Assembly: GCA_038063995.1 (NCBI GenBank)
Contig: JBBTUA010000006.1
Coordinates: forward strand, 1 to 44,782
DNA length: 44,782 nucleotides
Source: Patescibacteria group bacterium
GTDB lineage: Bacteria > Patescibacteriota > Minisyncoccia > 2-02-FULL-40-12
Reading direction: 5' to 3'
In this document: positions 29,644 through 37,518 of the stretch, piece after piece
How positions within the stretch are numbered: the stretch's first letter is position 1
Layout: each line of letters starts with the position of its first letter
Translations under genes and position numbers: made by a program
Notes under the pieces: generated by a model
Told to the model about the DNA's origin: nothing
Database searches by the model: none
The model's input: the letters and a program-made list of their open reading frames with translations, nothing else

Positions 29644-31089
29644 TTAAATATTTAAATTTATTTTGTTAATAGCCTTATCCAGCCTTTTAATAACTTCTTC
29701 TTTTGATAAAACTTCTAAAATATCAACTGGATCAGGCGAGGTTTCGCGTCCAGTTAAGGCAACTCTTAAAGGCCAATAAACCGCTCCCCTATCTCCGGCA
29801 AATTCAGTCTTGGCAATCTCGTCTAATTTGATTTTGATATAATCTTTGTCGAAGATATTCCAATCAACCGGTTCAAGCGCTTCTTTTGTTAAATTTAAGG
29901 ACTTTTTAATTGCTTCGGCCGGCGTGTTTTTCCAGTTTAGCAACTCTCTTTTATACTCGGGTTCTTTGAAAAAATAATCAAAATCAGCCGCATCAGAGAG
30001 TTTTTCCATTCTCTCGGTCATCATATGCCTTATTTTTTCCAGATATTCGTCTTTGACTCCGTCTATTTCCAAATTATTTGTGATAAACGGCATAATTGTC
30101 GTTCTGAATTGTTCCGGCGTCAGCTGATGGATGTAATAAGCATTCATCCAATTGAGTTTCTTTATATCAAAAACTGCGGGCGACTTCTGGACATCTTTCA
30201 GATCAAACAAAGCCGATAGTTCTTCAATCGAGTAAATGTCTTCGGGCTTTTCACCTTTGATCTCGATTTTCCCCGGCCTCCAGCCCATGAGAGCCATAAA
30301 ATTGATCATTGCTTCAGGTATGTACCCTTGTTCTTTGTATTCTTTAACTGATTCTGCTCCGTGCCTTTTCGACAACTTAGTTCTGTCCGGTCCGAGAATT
30401 AAAGGCAAATGGGCATATTGAGGCTTTTCTATTTCCAAAGCTTCCTGAATCAAAATTTGTTTAGGGGTGTTAGAAATGTGATCTTCCCCCCTGATAATGT
30501 GAGAAATTTTTGTTTCATAATCGTCTATTACTACGGCGAAATTATAAAGAGGAGTCTCCAGATTTTTGGCTAAGCTCAAATCCCCTATCAGATTTTCTTT
30601 CCATTCGATTGTTCCCCGGATAAGGTCATTAAAATGGATTACCCGAGTAGCATTTTCATCAACCTTTAATCTTATAATTCCTTTTTGGTCAATTTGGGCA
30701 TTTTTATACTTATGTTCGCAAATATGCCTTGGTGCTTCGCGACGAGCCATCTGTTCTTCGCTTTCTTTTTTAAGTTCTTCAACCGTATGATAGCACCAGA
30801 ACGCTTTGCCTTCGTCTAATAACTTTTGGAGGTATTTTTTATACACGCCTATCCGTTCGCTTTGCTTGTAAAATTCATCCCAAATGATCTCTAACCAATT
30901 AAATGAATCTTTGATATCTTCTTCGAATTTGGGATCAGAGCGCTCCAGATCAGTATCCTCGATTCTTAAAATAAAAGTGCCTTTATTTTTTCGAGCGAAA
31001 AGCAAATTAAAAAGCGCCGTTCGAGCTAGACCAATATGAAGCGGCCCAGTGGGAGATGGCGCAATTCTGACTCGGATTTGATTAGACAT
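29644..31089 (-). CDS. gltX: Glutamyl-tRNA synthetase
   Basis: APSPTGPLHIG, LRIEDTD, RGEDHISNT, KLSKR. Confidence 0.97.
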   Translation of the reverse strand: MSNQIRVRIAPSPTGPLHIGLARTALFNLLFARKNKGTFILRIEDTDLERSDPKFEEDIKDSFNWLEIIWDEFYKQSERIGVYKKYLQKLLDEGKAFWCYHTVEELKKESEEQMARREAPRHICEHKYKNAQIDQKGIIRLKVDENATRVIHFNDLIRGTIEWKENLIGDLSLAKNLETPLYNFAVVIDDYETKISHIIRGEDHISNTPKQILIQEALEIEKPQYAHLPLILGPDRTKLSKRHGAESVKEYKEQGYIPEAMINFMALMGWRPGKIEIKGEKPEDIYSIEELSALFDLKDVQKSPAVFDIKKLNWMNAYYIHQLTPEQFRTTIMPFITNNLEIDGVKDEYLEKIRHMMTERMEKLSDAADFDYFFKEPEYKRELLNWKNTPAEAIKKSLNLTKEALEPVDWNIFDKDYIKIKLDEIAKTEFAGDRGAVYWPLRVALTGRETSPDPVDILEVLSKEEVIKRLDKAINKINLNI

Positions 31090-31134
31090 ATATTGTATTC
31101 TAACCTATATTTAACATCGATTCCAACGACGAGT

Positions 31135-31863
31135 ATGAGAATTTCCAGCGGATTTACTAAAATCGGCAAAGAGATCGGCAGGTTCAAAGAAAAGAAGCCT
31201 GATAGCGGCATTCATGGACCGGTGCATGCCTTGGCTAAAGAGATTTCTGAAACATTCGGGGAGCCTAAAAAATTCCCTATGTATCTGGGGATAATAAAAA
31301 ATATCGGGCTTAAAAGGGCTTATGAAATATTCTCAAAAATCAGGCAGTCGAAAAGCATAAAAGATCCGGGAAAATTATTTGTCTATGAATCGCGCTACAA
31401 AATGGAAATCGTAAAAAAACCGGCAGAAATTTTAACCAAAAAATTGGCTGATGTTGACTTGATAACGGCTCAATTGAAAAAGGTTATTTTAAAAATGAAA
31501 AAGATAATGAGAGAAAATAAGGGAATCGGTCTGGCGGCCAACCAAATCGGTTTGAATATGAAGCTTTTTGTTATAGATGAGGAATTGGCCAAAGAATACA
31601 ATGCGCCGGATGTTTATATAAATCCGGAGATTAAGCCTTACCCGCCTGCTGGACGGGCAGGTTCAAAAGACACTGAAGAAATGGAAGAAGGATGTTTAAG
31701 CATTCCGGAAACTTGGCTGAAAATTAAAAGGTCGAAAAAAGTTAAAGTTAAAACCGTAGATGAAGAAGGAAAAAAGCATAAATTCATCGCCAAAGGAATG
31801 CTTGCCCGAGTTCTGCAACACGAATATGACCATCTGCAGGGGGTTTTGATAACGGATAAATAA
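31135..31863 (+). CDS. def: Peptide deformylase with a fused ~89-aa N-terminal domain (deformylase part from ATG 31402)
   Basis: GIGLAANQIG, EGCLS, QHEYDHLQG; no stop between 31135 and 31402. Confidence 0.85.
   Translation: MRISSGFTKIGKEIGRFKEKKPDSGIHGPVHALAKEISETFGEPKKFPMYLGIIKNIGLKRAYEIFSKIRQSKSIKDPGKLFVYESRYKMEIVKKPAEILTKKLADVDLITAQLKKVILKMKKIMRENKGIGLAANQIGLNMKLFVIDEELAKEYNAPDVYINPEIKPYPPAGRAGSKDTEEMEEGCLSIPETWLKIKRSKKVKVKTVDEEGKKHKFIAKGMLARVLQHEYDHLQGVLITDK
31641..31661. mobile_element. 21-bp in-frame palindromic insertion in def (PPAGRAG)
   Basis: CCCGCCTGCTGGACGGGCAGG imperfect hairpin; removal gives INPEIKPYSKDTEEMEEGC. Confidence 0.65.
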
Positions 31864-32586: not shown

Positions 32587-32789
32587 AGCGAAAAGCGGCG
32601 AGCAATATCAATTTTTGAATTGGGAAGTATCTTGCAAATTGCCGGAATCTTTATGAAAATTTGCCGATGACAAATCTACGGGGGAGGTATCCTGATTTGT
32701 CGGCAAATTGAATAAAGTAACGGAGATTCAATTTACAAGAAGGGCTACCCTTATGAAGGAATTGATATTGCTCGCGCAAGGTTTTCGCT
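32587..32789 (+). repeat. Large structured intergenic element, type A copy 1
   Basis: Nested IRs AGCGAAAA/TTTTCGCT, GCGAGCAATATCAATT/AATTGATATTGCTCGC, AATTTGCCGA/TCGGCAAATT, GACAAATC/GATTTGTC. Confidence 0.88.
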
Positions 32790-32797
32790 ACATATAA

Positions 32798-33673
32798 ATG
32801 AAACTTTTATTTTTCGGCACATCAGACTTCTCAAAGCCGGTTTTTGAGGTCTTAAAAAAATGTGATTATTCCCCTATTTTGTGGAATCAGCAGGGTTCTT
32901 TTGACGACTTTAAAAAAATAAATCCCGATATCTGCATTGTCGCCGCTTACGGAAAAATAATTCCGAAAGATTGGCTTGAAATTCCTAGATATGGATTTTT
33001 GAATATCCATCCCTCGCTTCTGCCAAAATACCGCGGGGCCTCCCCTATCCAAACCGCAATTTTAAACGGCGATAAAGAATCCGGTATTACTATAATTTTG
33101 ATGGATGAAAAAATAGACCATGGGCCGATACTCGCTTCGCGAAAATTTTCAATTTTCAACAGCAATTCCGCAACGAGCCGCAAGCGGCTCGGCGGAACCT
33201 TCGACGAGCATTTTAAATTTTCAAAATATAAAGAATTGGAAAAAGAATTGGCAGAACTGGGAGCACAGCTTCTTATTGAAACCTTGCCAAAGTGGATTGC
33301 CGGCGGGATAAAATCAAAAGAGCAAAATCATAATCAGGGAACTTATACTAAAAAATTATCGTGGGAAGATGGTAAAATTGACTGGTCAAAAACTGCGGTA
33401 GAAGTTGAGCGGCAAATCAGAGCTTTGAATCCGGAGCCGGGTACTTGGACCACATGGAACAACAAAGTTTTAAAAATTATTGAGGCCGAATCAATAGAAT
33501 CAAAATTGGCCGGTGAACCTGGCTTGGTGATTAAGGTTGAAAGTGAGGTTTTGGTGAAATGCGGGGTTAATGCCTTGATTCTTAAAAAAGTCCAGCTTGA
33601 AGGCGGGAAACCGCTTTCAATCAAAGATTTCCTAAACGGCCATAGAAATTTCGTCGGTTCCAAATTGACTTAG
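32798..33673 (+). CDS. fmt: Methionyl-tRNA formyltransferase with an in-frame insert
   Basis: FFGTSDF, VAAYG, NIHPSLLPKYRGASPI, DHGPIL, IRALNPEPG. Confidence 0.95.
   Translation: MKLLFFGTSDFSKPVFEVLKKCDYSPILWNQQGSFDDFKKINPDICIVAAYGKIIPKDWLEIPRYGFLNIHPSLLPKYRGASPIQTAILNGDKESGITIILMDEKIDHGPILASRKFSIFNSNSATSRKRLGGTFDEHFKFSKYKELEKELAELGAQLLIETLPKWIAGGIKSKEQNHNQGTYTKKLSWEDGKIDWSKTAVEVERQIRALNPEPGTWTTWNNKVLKIIEAESIESKLAGEPGLVIKVESEVLVKCGVNALILKKVQLEGGKPLSIKDFLNGHRNFVGSKLT
33159..33209 (+). mobile_element. 51-bp in-frame hairpin insertion in fmt, inside an AATTTTC heptamer array
   Basis: ACAGCAATTCCGCAAC-GAGCCGCAAGCGGCTC-GGCGGAACCTTCGACGAGC; arms near-identical to 36622-36669. Confidence 0.88.
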
Positions 33674-33882
33674 CGAAAAGCTTTCCTCGGCATATGTTTT
33701 CGAAAACCGCTCACAAAACCCAGCGAGTTTTGCTCGCTGTACTTGCGACCTCCTAAAGTCAAGACTAGCCCTCGCTCCACCCAGCTAAGCTGGGCTTCGC
33801 TCGGTCTTCATACAATCTTGACTTACCCTGCTAGTCGGTCTCCAGAACTTTTCGAGAAACATATGCCTCGCGCTTTTCGCTA
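33671..33882 (-). repeat. Large structured intergenic element (type C, with A-like ends and B-like modules)
   Basis: IRs TAGCGAAAAGC/GCTTTTCGCTA, GGCATATGTTT/AAACATATGCC, AAGTCAAGA/TCTTGACTT; modules CCCTCGCTCC and GCTCGGTCTTCATACA. First TAG is the fmt stop. Confidence 0.85.
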
Positions 33883-33980
33883 GATTAAGAATCAAAACTC
33901 GGCTGTACCCTTGAGCTCTGATTATTTTGAAACTATACGTGTTTTATATGCCTTTACTTTTCGGTCAAAAAGTATAAAAT

Positions 33981-34178
33981 TAGAAAGCGGCTCGGCATCT
34001 AAATTTCTGAGTCTGGGGAGTCGTCTTAGAAAATAGCCGCTATCTTTATGAAAATTTGCCGAATGATAAATCTATGGCGGAGGTACCCTAATTTATCGGC
34101 AAATTGAATAAAGTGGCGCGCTATTTTCAAGAAGGGGCACCAAAGGAAGAAATTTTGATGCCGAGCGCAAGCTTTCTA
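33981..34178 (+). repeat. Large structured intergenic element, type A copy 2
   Basis: IRs TAGAAAGC/GCTTTCTA and GCTCGGCATC/GATGCCGAGC; ATCTTTATGAAAATTTGCCGA and TCGGCAAATTGAATAAAGT identical to copy 1. Confidence 0.88.
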
Positions 34179-34185
34179 CTTATTC

Positions 34186-34755
34186 ATGTTAGGAATGAAC
34201 GATCTAAAAATCGGGACTTTTTTTATAATAGAGGGACAGCCTTACGAAGTTTTGTATTCCCAGCATCTTAAAATGCAGCAGCGCCGGCCGGTAATGCAGA
34301 CTAAAATAAAAAACCTTTTGACCGGAAAGGTAATTGAGAAGAATTTTCAGCAGTCCGACTACTTCGAAGAAGCCGACATTCAGAAAAAAGAAGTTAAGTT
34401 TTTATACTTTCACAGGAACGAATTCTGGTTTTCAGAACCAAATGATCCATCCAAAAGATTTAAATTGGGTGAAGATATTATTGGCGAATCAGCTAAATTT
34501 TTAAAATCCAATACATCCATAATCTCGCTTCTTTTCAATGGCCAAATCATAAATATCGAGCTTCCGGTTAAAATTGATTTTAGAGTTATAGAGGCTCCGC
34601 CATCAAGCCGCGGCAATACCGCCCAAGGAGGGACAAAGCAGGTTAAAATCGAAACTGGCGCAATGATTAATGCACCTCTTTTTATTGAAGAAGGAGACAT
34701 TATCAAAATAAATACCCAAACCGGCGAATACGCTGAAAGAGTTGAAAAGAAATAA
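34186..34755 (+). CDS. efp: Elongation factor P
   Basis: KIKNLLTG, IELP, GNTAQGGTK, ETGA, PLFIEEGD, GEYAER. Confidence 0.95.
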   Translation: MLGMNDLKIGTFFIIEGQPYEVLYSQHLKMQQRRPVMQTKIKNLLTGKVIEKNFQQSDYFEEADIQKKEVKFLYFHRNEFWFSEPNDPSKRFKLGEDIIGESAKFLKSNTSIISLLFNGQIINIELPVKIDFRVIEAPPSSRGNTAQGGTKQVKIETGAMINAPLFIEEGDIIKINTQTGEYAERVEKK

Positions 34756-34760
34756 TTTAT

Positions 34761-34789
34761 TTGACCTCTCTATAACAAAAAAATAGAAT
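34761..34789 (+). promoter_or_regulatory. Putative leaderless sigma70 promoter
   Basis: TTGACC-17-TAGAAT, ATG 7 nt downstream. Confidence 0.65.
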
Positions 34790-34796
34790 AAATCCA

Positions 34797-36056
34797 ATGC
34801 CCGTCACTCTGATTAAAAAGCTAAAAAGGATCTGGCGCTATCTTGGAGCAGGATTGATCACCGGAGCGGCTGATGACGATCCGGCCGGAGTTACTACTTA
34901 CGCAATTGCCGGCACCAGACTCGGTTTTTCGTCTTTATGGACGGCTTTTTTCACTTATCCTTTGATGACGGCAATTCAGGAAATGTCCGCCAGAATCGGC
35001 ATAATCACGAAGATGGGGTTAGCCGGAGTGTTAAAAAAGCATTATCCTTTTGTTCTTCTTATTTTTATCGCTCTTTTAATGGTTTCAAGCAATATTTTTA
35101 ATATCGGGGCTGATATTTCCGGTATGAGCGCGGCCACGAATCTTTTAATTCCTTTCATTTCGCCGAAAATTTTTGCTTTGCTCTATTCTGTTTTGATCAT
35201 TTATTTGATGATTGCTTGGGATTTTAAAAAAATGATCAAGTCCTTTAAATGGTTAAGCTTCACTCTTATCTTTTATGCGATTGCCGCTTTTTTCGTATCC
35301 CACGACTGGGGGCAAGTTTTCAGATTTATCATCACTCCGGAGCTTACTTTGAACAAAGAAACCATTTCGCTGATCATTGCCGTTTTCGGGACGACTCTTT
35401 CGCCGTATCTTTTTTTCTGGCAGACGACCGAAGAAGCGATTGAAGAAAAAAACCACCATCACGAGCATCACCATATCCACGATGAAAAGCTTAAAAAAGA
35501 AATAACTCATATGGAGAAGGATGTCGCTTTTGGAATGTTTTTTTCAAATTTAATTATGTTTTTCGTAATGATGCTGGCCGCCACTCTTTTTTATAATAAA
35601 ACCGTAACCATTGAAACGATAGACGAGTTGTCGCGGCTGCTTGAGCCTCTGCTTGGAAAATTGGGCCAGATAGTTTTTACCTTTGGAATTGTCGGAACGG
35701 GATTGATGGTGATTCCGATTTTGTCTCTTGGCTCGGCCTATATTTTGGCGGAAACTTTTGGCTGGAACGAGGGAATGGGCAAGTTTCACCGAGCCAAAGA
35801 GTTTTATTTGGTTATAATAGTTTCAACGGCTTTGGCCCTTTTAATGAATTACTTCGGCTTTAATCCCGTAAAGTTGTTGTTTTACACTGCTTTGTTTCAC
35901 GGCATCATATCCCCTCCTTTAATCTTGACTATTCTTTCAATTTCAAATAATAAAAAAATAATGGGAACTTATGTAAATTCAAGCATTATCAATATTTTGG
36001 GATTTGGAGCTTTTCTGATTATGACCGTGGCAGTGATAATGTTTTTCATTTTATGA
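34797..36056 (+). CDS. NRAMP-related divalent metal transporter
   Basis: GAADDDPAG, QEMSARIG, GTTLSPYLFFWQ, His-rich loop. Confidence 0.88.
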   Translation: MPVTLIKKLKRIWRYLGAGLITGAADDDPAGVTTYAIAGTRLGFSSLWTAFFTYPLMTAIQEMSARIGIITKMGLAGVLKKHYPFVLLIFIALLMVSSNIFNIGADISGMSAATNLLIPFISPKIFALLYSVLIIYLMIAWDFKKMIKSFKWLSFTLIFYAIAAFFVSHDWGQVFRFIITPELTLNKETISLIIAVFGTTLSPYLFFWQTTEEAIEEKNHHHEHHHIHDEKLKKEITHMEKDVAFGMFFSNLIMFFVMMLAATLFYNKTVTIETIDELSRLLEPLLGKLGQIVFTFGIVGTGLMVIPILSLGSAYILAETFGWNEGMGKFHRAKEFYLVIIVSTALALLMNYFGFNPVKLLFYTALFHGIISPPLILTILSISNNKKIMGTYVNSSIINILGFGAFLIMTVAVIMFFIL

Positions 36057-36063
36057 TTTTTTT

Positions 36064-37518
36064 ATGAAAATTTTAAATACTTTATCCGGCCAGAAAGAGG
36101 AATTTGAGCCGATTCAAGATAAAAAAGTCGGGATGTTCGTTTGCGGCCCGACGGTTTATGACTGGTCTCATATCGGACATGCAAGGACCTATGTAATTTT
36201 TGATATTATTTCAAAATACCTTCGCTCCAAAGGCCATAAAGTCAAATTCATAATGAACATCACGGATATAGACGATAAAATAATTGAGCGAGCCAGAAAT
36301 GAAGGCAAGTCTTGGAAAGAAATCGCTGATTTTTTTGAAAAAGAATTTATGGCTGATATGAATGCCCTTTATATTAAAGTTGATAAATTTGCCAAAGCGA
36401 CTGACCACATTAAAGAAATAATCAAACAAATAAGTGCTTTGGTTAAAAAGAGCTACGCCTATGAAATTGAAGGCGAAGGCGTGTATTTTGATATTTCGAA
36501 ATTCGAAGATTACGGAAAGTTATCAAAAAGAACTGTTGAACAGGCCGAAGACGCTGTATCCCGTATAGACGAATCGGTTAGTAAACGGAATAAAGGCGAT
36601 TTTGTCTTATGGAAGTTTTCAACAGCGATTCCGCAACCCGCCTATGGCGGGGCGGAACCTTCGACGAGCACAGCAGACGAGCCTTCGTGGGATAGCCCAT
36701 GGGGCAAAGGCCGCCCGGGCTGGCATATTGAAGATACTGCTATTTCAGAAAAATATCTTGGAAAGCAATATGAAATCCATTGCGGCGGCCGGGACCTGGC
36801 TTTTCCCCATCATGAAGCAGAAATAGCTCAGCAGGAAGCGGCTTCAGGTAAAAACCCTTTTGTTAAATATTGGCTTCATTCAGGATTTGTTACGGTTGAC
36901 GGCCAGAAAATGTCCAAGTCATTGGGAAATTTTATAACAATAAGAGAAGTTCTCCAAGAATATCCTCCGGAAGCTTTGCGTTTTATGATTGCATCTTCTC
37001 ATTATCGCTCCCCTGTTGCTTACAGCGAAGATTTAATAAAATCGAGCGAAGCGGCTATCCAAAGAATCATTGAGCTGAAAGACAAGCTCGATTTGCTCAA
37101 GAAAAGCTCAAATGCGGAAGATTTAGATATTGGGGTTGAAAACCTGATAAAAACCGCCAGAGAAAAATTCGAGGAAAAAATGGATGATGACTTTAATACG
37201 CCGGAAGCAGTAGCCGTGATTTTTGATTTTATAAGGATGGTAAACGGGTTGATTGACGAGAACAAGATCAGCAAGAAATCAGCGGATAAAATATTAAAAT
37301 TCATTGAAGAGTTAGATAAAGTTCTTGGAGTAATCCCTGAAAAAAAATCTATTCCGGCAGAGATTTCGAAGCTGGTTCAAACCAGAGAAAAATTGAGAAA
37401 AAATAAAGAATGGCTGGAAGCTGATAAAATAAGGGACCGGATTCAGGAAGGGGGCTACTCAATCGAAGATACTTTGTACGGGCCATTAGTGAAGAAGAGC
37501 TTAGAACATAGAATTTAG
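36064..37518 (+). CDS. cysS: Cysteinyl-tRNA synthetase with a 16-aa insert
   Basis: CGPTVY, HIGH, GRPGWHIE, FPHHEAE, KMSKSLGN. Confidence 0.97.
   Translation: MKILNTLSGQKEEFEPIQDKKVGMFVCGPTVYDWSHIGHARTYVIFDIISKYLRSKGHKVKFIMNITDIDDKIIERARNEGKSWKEIADFFEKEFMADMNALYIKVDKFAKATDHIKEIIKQISALVKKSYAYEIEGEGVYFDISKFEDYGKLSKRTVEQAEDAVSRIDESVSKRNKGDFVLWKFSTAIPQPAYGGAEPSTSTADEPSWDSPWGKGRPGWHIEDTAISEKYLGKQYEIHCGGRDLAFPHHEAEIAQQEAASGKNPFVKYWLHSGFVTVDGQKMSKSLGNFITIREVLQEYPPEALRFMIASSHYRSPVAYSEDLIKSSEAAIQRIIELKDKLDLLKKSSNAEDLDIGVENLIKTAREKFEEKMDDDFNTPEAVAVIFDFIRMVNGLIDENKISKKSADKILKFIEELDKVLGVIPEKKSIPAEISKLVQTREKLRKNKEWLEADKIRDRIQEGGYSIEDTLYGPLVKKSLEHRI
36622..36669 (+). mobile_element. 48-bp in-frame hairpin insertion in cysS
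   Basis: ACAGCGATTCCGCAAC-CCGCCTATGGCGG-GGCGGAACCTTCGACGAGC; removal gives WKFSTADEPSW. Confidence 0.88.

Follow-up and report, generated by a model that had tools for sequence, protein, structure and literature searches.

The stretch of DNA analysed here (the window, 44,782 nucleotides) is contig C6 of a Patescibacteria group genome, G000 (395,389 bases in 12 contigs, estimated to be 85% complete). It carries two copies of a short hairpin element, inserted in frame in the genes of two translation enzymes, methionyl-tRNA formyltransferase (fmt) and class I cysteinyl-tRNA synthetase (cysS). Together with further copies in G000 and its relatives, they belong to what is probably a family of non-autonomous mobile hairpin mini-elements, translated through by their host genes and analogous to the Rickettsia palindromic elements (RPEs). 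The evidence comes from sites that are filled in one genome and empty in its relatives, from lengths and reading frames that keep the host genes open, and from a hairpin whose pairing is preserved while its sequence changes.

The copies in fmt and cysS and their empty sites

The initial annotation had described the two inserts as one hairpin element of 51 and 48 nt sharing both arms. Its coordinates, sequences, lengths and arms were all reproduced, as was the location of both copies directly behind TTTTCA. The features are given below; G005 is a relative of G000, and scores refer to a covariance model (CM) built from 22 copies of the family.

32798..33673, + strand: fmt, methionyl-tRNA formyltransferase, host gene (Pfam Formyl_trans_N/C), with the insert in a loop between strands
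33153..33158, + strand: 5' flank TTTTCA of the fmt copy
33159..33209, + strand: element copy in fmt, 51 nt, CM score 73 bits; composed of ACAGCAATTCCGCAAC, GAGCCGCAAGCGGCTC and the right arm GGCGGAACCTTCGACGAGC, inside the open reading frame (ORF) 32798-33673
33166..33197, + strand: fmt hairpin; TTCCGC/GCGGAA as basal stem, AA bulge, variable stem of 7 bp, CAAG loop
36064..37518, + strand: cysS, class I cysteinyl-tRNA synthetase, host gene (Pfam tRNA-synt_1e)
36616..36621, + strand: 5' flank TTTTCA of the cysS copy
36622..36669, + strand: element copy in cysS, 48 nt, CM score 68.6 bits, read as TAIPQPAYGGAEPSTS; composed of ACAGCGATTCCGCAAC, CCGCCTATGGCGG and the right arm GGCGGAACCTTCGACGAGC, inside ORF 36064-37518
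36626..36663, + strand: cysS hairpin; CGA/TCG, TTCCGC/GCGGAA as basal stem, AA bulge, variable stem of 6 bp, 3-nt CCT bulge
36670..36682, + strand: host sequence ACAGCAGACGAGC directly 3' of the cysS insert; the G005 homologue, of equal length, reads GGTCCAGATGAAC

The 19-nt right arm occurs at exactly two sites in the window, 33191-33209 and 36651-36669, with none expected from 100 shuffled sequences. The left arm ACAGCRATTCCGCAAC (33159-33174 and 36622-36637) is weaker evidence when taken alone, since 8 of 100 shuffles reach two matches if three mismatches are allowed. The central hairpins comprise 16 nt in fmt and 13 nt in cysS, which results in the total lengths of 51 and 48 nt. Folded as RNA, the two hairpins reach -21.2 kcal/mol (fmt) and -21.8 kcal/mol (cysS), each with a z-score of -3.1; the fmt hairpin is also backed by pair counts from the 22-sequence alignment. 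The translations of the inserts, NSNSATSRKRLGGTFDEH and TAIPQPAYGGAEPSTS, differ, and different frames are used, as had been noted before; the reading frame of fmt yields (N)SNSATSRKRLGGTFDE(H), and the 5' end of this copy is the variant ACAGCA.

Orthologues from 20 relatives were aligned; in the Fmt alignment, one locus (L091) is not fmt and another (L092) duplicates L079. The 16 residues TAIPQPAYGGAEPSTS of CysRS are missing in all 20 relatives, and the 17 inserted residues of Fmt in all 18. With both hosts confirmed by Pfam, the proposed in-frame insertion in two translation enzymes is borne out. The CysRS insert lies in a length-variable loop ahead of the EPSW...GRPGWHIED motif, and two relatives (L058 and L062) show unrelated extra residues at the same loop, which is thus variable in length anyway.

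At the nucleotide level (insertion points are marked by a slash), excision of the 51 nt from fmt results in ...AATTTTCAATTTTCA/ATTTTAAATTTTC..., a gap-free match to the G005 orthologue, whose empty site sits in a tandem array of approximately four ATTTTCA units. This junction is ambiguous by one A only, and hence there is no target duplication, in agreement with the earlier description. Excision of the 48 nt from cysS leaves ...TTTTCA/ACAGCAGACGAGCC..., colinear with GGTCCAGATGAACC in G005. Here ACAGC, the first five nucleotides of the element, recurs on the right flank, as had also been observed, and constitutes an ambiguous 5-nt repeat which may be due to chance, to a target preference or to a 5-nt repeat proper. 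The adjoining host sequence ACAGCAGACGAGC, which repeats these five nucleotides, resembles both element ends joined; orthologues have GGTCCAGATGAAC or AAAGAAAGCGATC instead. A role of ACAG as the target, comparable to TTAC, the target of IS608, was considered and rejected: the empty site of fmt, ATTTTCA/ATTTTAAA, is devoid of ACAG, which consequently belongs to the element.

Six converse cases were found, in which a relative carries a copy and the G000 orthologue is uninterrupted, giving eight insertion polymorphisms in total. The converse cases are as follows.

L095, sense: 51 nt
L098, sense: 39 nt, host a class I synthetase of 759 residues
L101, antisense: 54 nt
L110, sense: 69 nt, translated in the basic frame
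L112: 69 nt, host the deformylase gene, the G000 orthologue of which lies at window positions 31036-31863
L116: 81 nt, host a class I synthetase of 713 residues

Clean nucleotide alignments were obtained for L101, L110, and L112. They are gap-free, reveal no duplication, and place the junctions at CCCCA/AATTC, TCCCA/AAAAC, and TATCA/AATGG.

A family of probably translated hairpins

As supposed in the initial annotation, the two window copies are part of a repeat family rather than a chance pair: G000 holds eleven copies, and more are found in relatives. The remaining G000 copies, and an additional fragment, are located as follows.

C3:3596-3646, C3:9187-9239, C3:11694-11744, C3:17013-17064, C5:4203-4253 and C8:4057-4108, + strand: element copies
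C3:48113-48164 and C3:52627-52689, - strand: element copies
C8:1075-1113, - strand: 39-nt form
C3:3799-3817: element fragment

With respect to genes, the eleven copies are distributed as follows.

Gene interior, sense: unknown 431-residue protein, 51 nt
Gene interior, sense: TsaE, 51 nt
Gene interior, sense: Mur ligase, C-terminal tail, 51 nt
Gene interior, sense: Fmt, 51 nt
Gene interior, sense: CysRS, 48 nt
Gene interior, antisense: methionine aminopeptidase (MetAP), 39 nt
Gene boundary, sense: NusB / RNase III, 53 nt
Gene boundary, sense: Pol III delta subunit / glycosyltransferase, 52 nt
Gene boundary, sense: DedA / TIM, 52 nt
Gene boundary, antisense: NusA / trigger factor, 52 nt
Intergenic: 63 nt

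All copies inside coding sequences have lengths that are multiples of three, both in G000 (6/6; 51, 51, 51, 51, 48, and 39 nt) and in the relatives (6/6; 51, 39, 54, 69, 69, and 81 nt), compared to one of the five boundary and intergenic copies of G000; forms of 52-53 nt occur only at gene ends or between genes. The twelve interior copies are not independent trials, as members of a subfamily share their length by descent; six different interior lengths (39, 48, 51, 54, 69, and 81 nt) obey the rule. All five 51-nt copies are free of stop codons in six frames, compared to 228 of 20,000 random 51-mers of G000, and the 48-nt copy is stop-free in five. The frames in use include the three sense frames as well as antisense frames. 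This usage, the occurrence in both orientations and the intergenic copies confirm that conservation resides at the nucleic-acid level. In verified contexts, about 15 copies are in sense and four in antisense orientation, in a small sample of copies that are not independent; the sense excess could reflect replication strand, transcription or peptide tolerance.

All members, 39-81 nt in length, have in common 5' ACAG CGA TTCC ... GGAA CCT TCG ACGAG(C/A) 3', alternatively written ACAGCGATTCC ... GGAACCTTCGACGAG[C/A]. At the base of the hairpin, CGA pairs with TCG and TTCC(GC) with (GC)GGAA, and CCT is bulged. The top differs between forms: those of 48-54 nt have simple hairpins of 13-19 nt, the 39-nt form has a short loop, the 69-nt and 81-nt forms of G005 have branched structures, and more distant records have a longer continuous stem (AAC with GTT or AGC with GCT). 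Identical types of top are found in different genera at non-orthologous sites, and thus the subfamilies are older than the genera.

In the 22-sequence alignment, pairing holds in 93.5% of the cells of the proposed structure, and both partners have changed in 6 of 13 pairs. Covariation scores 0.419, compared to 0.115 for shuffled alignments (0 of 500 reach 0.419); sliding the 3' partners by up to three columns gives no more than 0.128. Six copies folded as RNA show z-scores between -2.7 and -5.4. The same pairing would hold for RNA and for single-stranded DNA, and the data do not tell them apart. Decayed copies also exist (L006, L010, L097, L108, and the fragment C3:3799-3817), as expected for selfish DNA. 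At two loci, L210 and L215, the arrangement is nested or tandem, with the left half of one element directly followed by a complete element. Inside a coding sequence of the genome G001 (C5:621-636, L121), the 16 nt of the left arm are matched exactly but the right arm is missing; this is either a truncated old copy or a chance occurrence.

The distribution is patchy. According to the CM, the family occurs in six of eight genomes of the same taxonomic family, with 11 copies in G000, nine in G005, four in G001, two in G004, one each in G003 and G006, and none in G002 and G007. In an even sample of the class, 3 out of 151 genomes contain it. When one genome per species was scanned with a pattern, 30 stretches were obtained, 20 of them chance matches in GC-rich genomes and 10 true members, in records titled Candidatus Saccharibacteria, Parcubacteria group, Candidatus Yanofskybacteria, and Patescibacteria group metagenome-assembled genomes. 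The scan of metagenomes returned 107 stretches. Among 100 loci submitted to the CM (97 metagenomic and three viral), 51 reach at least 35 bits, 31 score at about 20-31 bits, and 18 have no match (E up to 0.001); loci at about 20-31 bits match in the ends only, because the search pattern itself enforces the ends. About half of the metagenomic pattern matches are chance matches in GC-rich DNA. Of the three matches in viral contigs, two lack the hairpin; the third (L134, positions 301-360) is a 60-nt stretch with the family ends and a plausible hairpin, and at 29.6 bits it ranks between the clear members and the chance class. If real, it would mean that a phage carries the element; with this middling match only, a phage as vector is not supported by the viral scan.

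Further copies also allowed an examination of the 5' flank. All sources together provide 73 distinct copies, of which 52 have C at position -2 and 47 have A at position +1. At position -1, 27 copies have A, 19 have T, 18 have G, and nine have C. The commonest dinucleotide 5' of the copies is CA (16/73). Both window copies read TTTTCA/A. The 5' preference is loose and is best put as Y-C-A/A for recent events, of which TTTTCA is a real but special case. With further copies and a 5' preference in the genome and empty sites in relatives, neither of the two outcomes named in the initial annotation as refuting it occurred.

Structure models of the two host proteins were obtained with AlphaFold2 from shallow alignments. 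In the CysRS model, the predicted local distance difference test (pLDDT) has a mean of 87.6 and falls below 50 at residues 188-202, which represent the insert; in the Fmt model (mean 87.3) it does so only at residues 123-140, again the insert. Neither insert shows secondary structure, so that both map to low-confidence loops, where surface loops had been expected. The element is probably transcribed and translated together with its host gene, adding a disordered surface loop of 13-27 residues, and in the products of fmt and cysS it most likely amounts to no more than such a flexible loop.

Mobilisation and competing explanations

We propose that the copies represent a very short (39-81 nt) non-autonomous mobile element with fixed ends and a fixed hairpin base, the upper stem-loop of which varies freely and is always paired. 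Its insertion is precise, leaves no target duplication, and prefers C at position -2. The element is GC-rich and stop-free in most or all six frames, and variants with a length divisible by three persist inside essential genes. The weakest step is the assumption that the fixed hairpin base serves as the recognition site of a trans-acting enzyme which reads the folded single strand in an HUH-like manner and which may not be encoded in these genomes at all. Such an enzyme is the most likely mechanism, although at odds clearly below even. For mobilisation of the hairpin family by HUH enzymes proper, raised as a possibility in the initial annotation, the hairpin, the missing duplication and the 5' preference are in agreement, while the 5' motif appears loose rather than fixed and the corresponding enzymes were not found in the genomes searched; it is thus an analogy and not a finding.

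Several observations weigh against a mobile element of this kind. In the five genomes searched (G000 and four element-bearing relatives, 85-99% complete), no match was obtained to the Y1 HUH transposase/RAYT family (PF01797; a control search with the same family matched in 7 of 14 reference genomes), to Y2 (PF04986), to TnpB (PF07282) or to IS110 (PF01548). Even distant records, the tops of which are quite different, have the same ends, and such invariance fits a motif recognised by the host as well as a transposase site. The orientation of the element shows no consistent relation to GC or AT skew. The low pLDDT at the inserts is partly expected from alignment gaps there. No empty allele was seen within the population: contigs of four DNA runs contain no clean joint skipping 48 or 51 nt, though the joints listed in this comparison have short sides of 20-30 nt and other lengths and are not evidence for the absence of such an allele. 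Finally, an antisense copy at the nusA-tig junction is common to G000 (C3:48113-48164, L111) and G005 (C15; L100, L245) and is identical at 52 of 52 positions in the two genera, including the rare end GAGA, with flanks that differ and contain indels. This copy provides the last codons of NusA and its TAG stop, and it is missing in G001, G003, and G006. The identity suggests constraint or gene conversion over neutral decay; it could be explained by either of these, with conversion taking place between copies, or by a hot spot at which insertion occurred repeatedly. Also in five relatives, no end pairs were found that bound a longer, autonomous element; the search for unpaired ends in these genomes returned the left-half remnant L121, one more 81-nt copy (L123), a partial copy (L126), and chance 10-mers.

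A different view of the same structure is that the hairpin base represents a functional nucleic-acid motif recognised by the host, for instance a site on RNA or single-stranded DNA that a lineage-specific protein binds or processes, with selection keeping the copies and mobility being secondary. The termini and basal stem, invariant across genera and distant records below a top that varies freely with compensation, the identical nusA-tig copies between diverged flanks, and the excess of sense copies would all be in accordance with it. Further support comes from six contigs (L035, L135, L139, L160, L202, and L211), where the module occupies a fixed place in an intergenic unit of approximately 290-365 nt. 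The composite units are found downstream of different genes. Three of them were delimited and folded (288, 326, and 365 nt); these fold strongly, and two are closed by CACAAAAATTACA/TGTAATTTTTGTG. L139 and L202 agree in the 10 nt flanking the module on either side, yet carry different hairpin tops. The units match no Rfam family, tRNA or transfer-messenger RNA (tmRNA), and G000 is without such a unit; they could be mosaics of repeats or an undescribed RNA. On the other hand, the positions of the hairpins are not conserved, as the eight insertion polymorphisms demonstrate, and the copies occur in both orientations, in three frames, in unrelated genes and between genes. The decayed copies, the low copy number, the patchy spread across the class and the lack of an Rfam match likewise speak against selection on a motif. 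The nusA-tig identity and the composite units keep this explanation alive, improbable as we consider it.

The remaining explanations are considerably less probable. An intron or bypass element, removed or skipped at the level of RNA or translation, would leave the enzymes with no extra residues. Conserved ends around a variable structured interior are an intron hallmark as well, and ribosomes bypass GC-rich hairpins inserted in some mitochondrial genes of fungi. However, removal would not require stop-free inserts with lengths divisible by three, and precisely this pattern is seen in 12 of 12 copies inside coding sequences, which are open in the host frame, with the 52-53-nt forms excluded from gene interiors. 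No ribozyme or intron family was matched, and the 5' and 3' flanks differ among copies, so that no take-off and landing codon pair is evident; we regard skipping as very unlikely. A similarly slim chance is assigned to the copies being pieces of some larger unit, either a structured RNA gene or a composite element, with gene conversion or a reverse transcriptase of the diversity-generating retroelement type as the means of spread in place of DNA transposition. The embedding of the module in larger units is consistent with this, as is the presence of a reverse transcriptase in G000, G001, G003, and G005. The features of the G000 locus are:

C12, locus L129, 1336-2337, - strand: reverse transcriptase ORF, similar to those of G001, G003 and G005
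L129, 2688-2823 and 3063-3198: direct repeat pair of 136 nt, 86% identical, adjoining the reverse transcriptase

As the layout is the signature of a diversity-generating retroelement, the enzyme was rejected as mobiliser: the locus looks like an ordinary retroelement of this type and carries no copy of the element. Moreover, G004 (87% complete) has copies and no match to a reverse transcriptase, the larger unit is missing from G000, and the junctions show no poly-A or other marks of retro-insertion. Assembly artefacts, i.e., chimeric joins at a repeat, have a practically negligible probability. It is true that public-run contigs often break at the elements, as they do at repeats; nevertheless, contigs of three of the four public DNA runs compared, representing both of the two studies concerned, span the entire cysS copy with 0 differences, the reading frames remain open, and the same kind of insertion is observed in independent genomes.

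Searches for known RNAs gave no indication of another identity. Rfam 15 revealed no relevant family in the window region at E up to 10, with chance matches to small nucleolar RNA and microRNA elsewhere only, and nothing in eight related loci at E up to 0.1 except one chance microRNA match; ten loci scanned with ARAGORN contained neither tRNA nor tmRNA. The possibility that the conserved tails are hammerhead-like or k-turn-like was dismissed, as the core nucleotides do not fit by eye.

If the copies are indeed mobile mini-elements, even a genome of approximately 0.4-0.7 Mb, with almost no room for junk, would carry an active selfish hairpin family, which would survive by being harmless when translated, i.e., by being stop-free in up to six frames and by having a length divisible by three. 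The insertions would represent a natural experiment, revealing where CysRS, Fmt, deformylase, MetAP, TsaE, and an approximately 700-residue class I aminoacyl-tRNA synthetase have loops that tolerate 13-27 extra residues, and the family could be used to trace recent divergence and horizontal exchange between uncultured bacteria with small genomes. Since no known transposase accompanies the element, it may also provide a lead to a new mobilisation mechanism. In its boldest form, which we consider unlikely, the invariant base (ACAG-CGA-TTCC / GGAA-CCT-TCG-ACGAG) would serve for recognition in a mobilisation or binding system that is specific for single strands and not yet described, spread across several Patescibacteria lineages without a recognisable HUH, DDE, TnpB or IS110 enzyme. 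The tops would be exchangeable, and variants with lengths divisible by three would enable the system to colonise essential genes of ultra-small genomes and to reshape protein loops.

Relation to known elements and neighbouring repeats

By analogy of features, the RPE is the closest known kind of element, being in-frame, tolerated, palindromic and devoid of a known transposase. In the part of the source consulted, RPEs are described as short palindromic repeats of a reduced genome, located in frame in unrelated housekeeping genes, apparently tolerated as an extra peptide and with no known transposase; their size is about 150 bp, with one conserved peptide encoded per family (PMC10969869). The hairpin family shares with them the in-frame location in unrelated ORFs (12/12 divisible by three) and the existence of relatives without the insert (eight polymorphisms). 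It differs in being three times shorter (39-81 nt), in being defined by structure and ends and not by an encoded peptide, and in being read in at least three sense frames as well as in antisense frames. It also leaves no duplication and belongs to a different phylum with ultra-small genomes; the comparison is one of features, not of sequence.

The HUH systems IS200/IS605 and repetitive extragenic palindromic (REP) sequences with their RAYT enzymes are characterised by a hairpin with short conserved single-stranded flanks, by insertion with no target duplication, and by preference for a short 5' motif. Covarying hairpins, the lack of a target duplication (fmt, L101, L110, and L112) and a 5' preference are found in the hairpin family, too. 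Unlike these systems, it has a degenerate 5' motif and no GTAG/GTGG head, and no Y1 gene was found in the five genomes. Compared to REP/RAYT, there are about ten copies instead of hundreds, located inside genes as well as between them.

Integron attC sites are defined by the structure of a single strand and possess conserved ends, bulged bases, and a paired middle of variable length. The hairpin family resembles them in its conserved ends, bulges, and variable paired middle, but reveals no GTTRRRY/RYYYAAC core by eye and no cassette arrays, and its copies lie inside genes. Classical MITEs (miniature transposable elements with inverted repeats) possess terminal inverted repeats and target-site duplications from DDE transposases. 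In the excerpts consulted, bacterial MITEs (Correia, ERIC, RUP and others) are small non-autonomous repeats in or next to genes, sometimes forming in-frame fusions. The hairpin family is likewise small, non-autonomous, and located in or next to genes; its ends, in contrast to those of DDE-dependent MITEs, pair imperfectly (CGA-TTCC / GGAA-CCT-TCG), and no duplication is found.

Mobile GC-rich hairpins are also described for organelle genomes, such as the repetitive hairpin-forming elements of sponge mitochondria, and as far as the consulted part of the source reaches, the likeness consists in GC-rich hairpins that spread in AT-rich small genomes (PMC2800124). In contrast to the hairpin family, these elements are organellar, and some are bypassed or occur only between genes. 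We know of no sequence common to organellar GC-rich hairpins and the hairpin family. A literature search, with most subscription journals outside its scope, returned no description of such elements in these bacteria.

Two further repeat families are present in the window, in the fmt-efp spacer (33674-33881 and approximately 33980-34180) and at window positions 32592-32784. The first is a long-hairpin unit of approximately 210 nt with a 96.6% identical copy at C8:8605-8812 of G000 and a 70% copy on C5. The second is a strongly folding unit of approximately 200 nt with about ten copies at 75-82% identity on C2, C3, C4, C5, C6, C7, and C8. The depth of public-run contigs is raised over these stretches as well.

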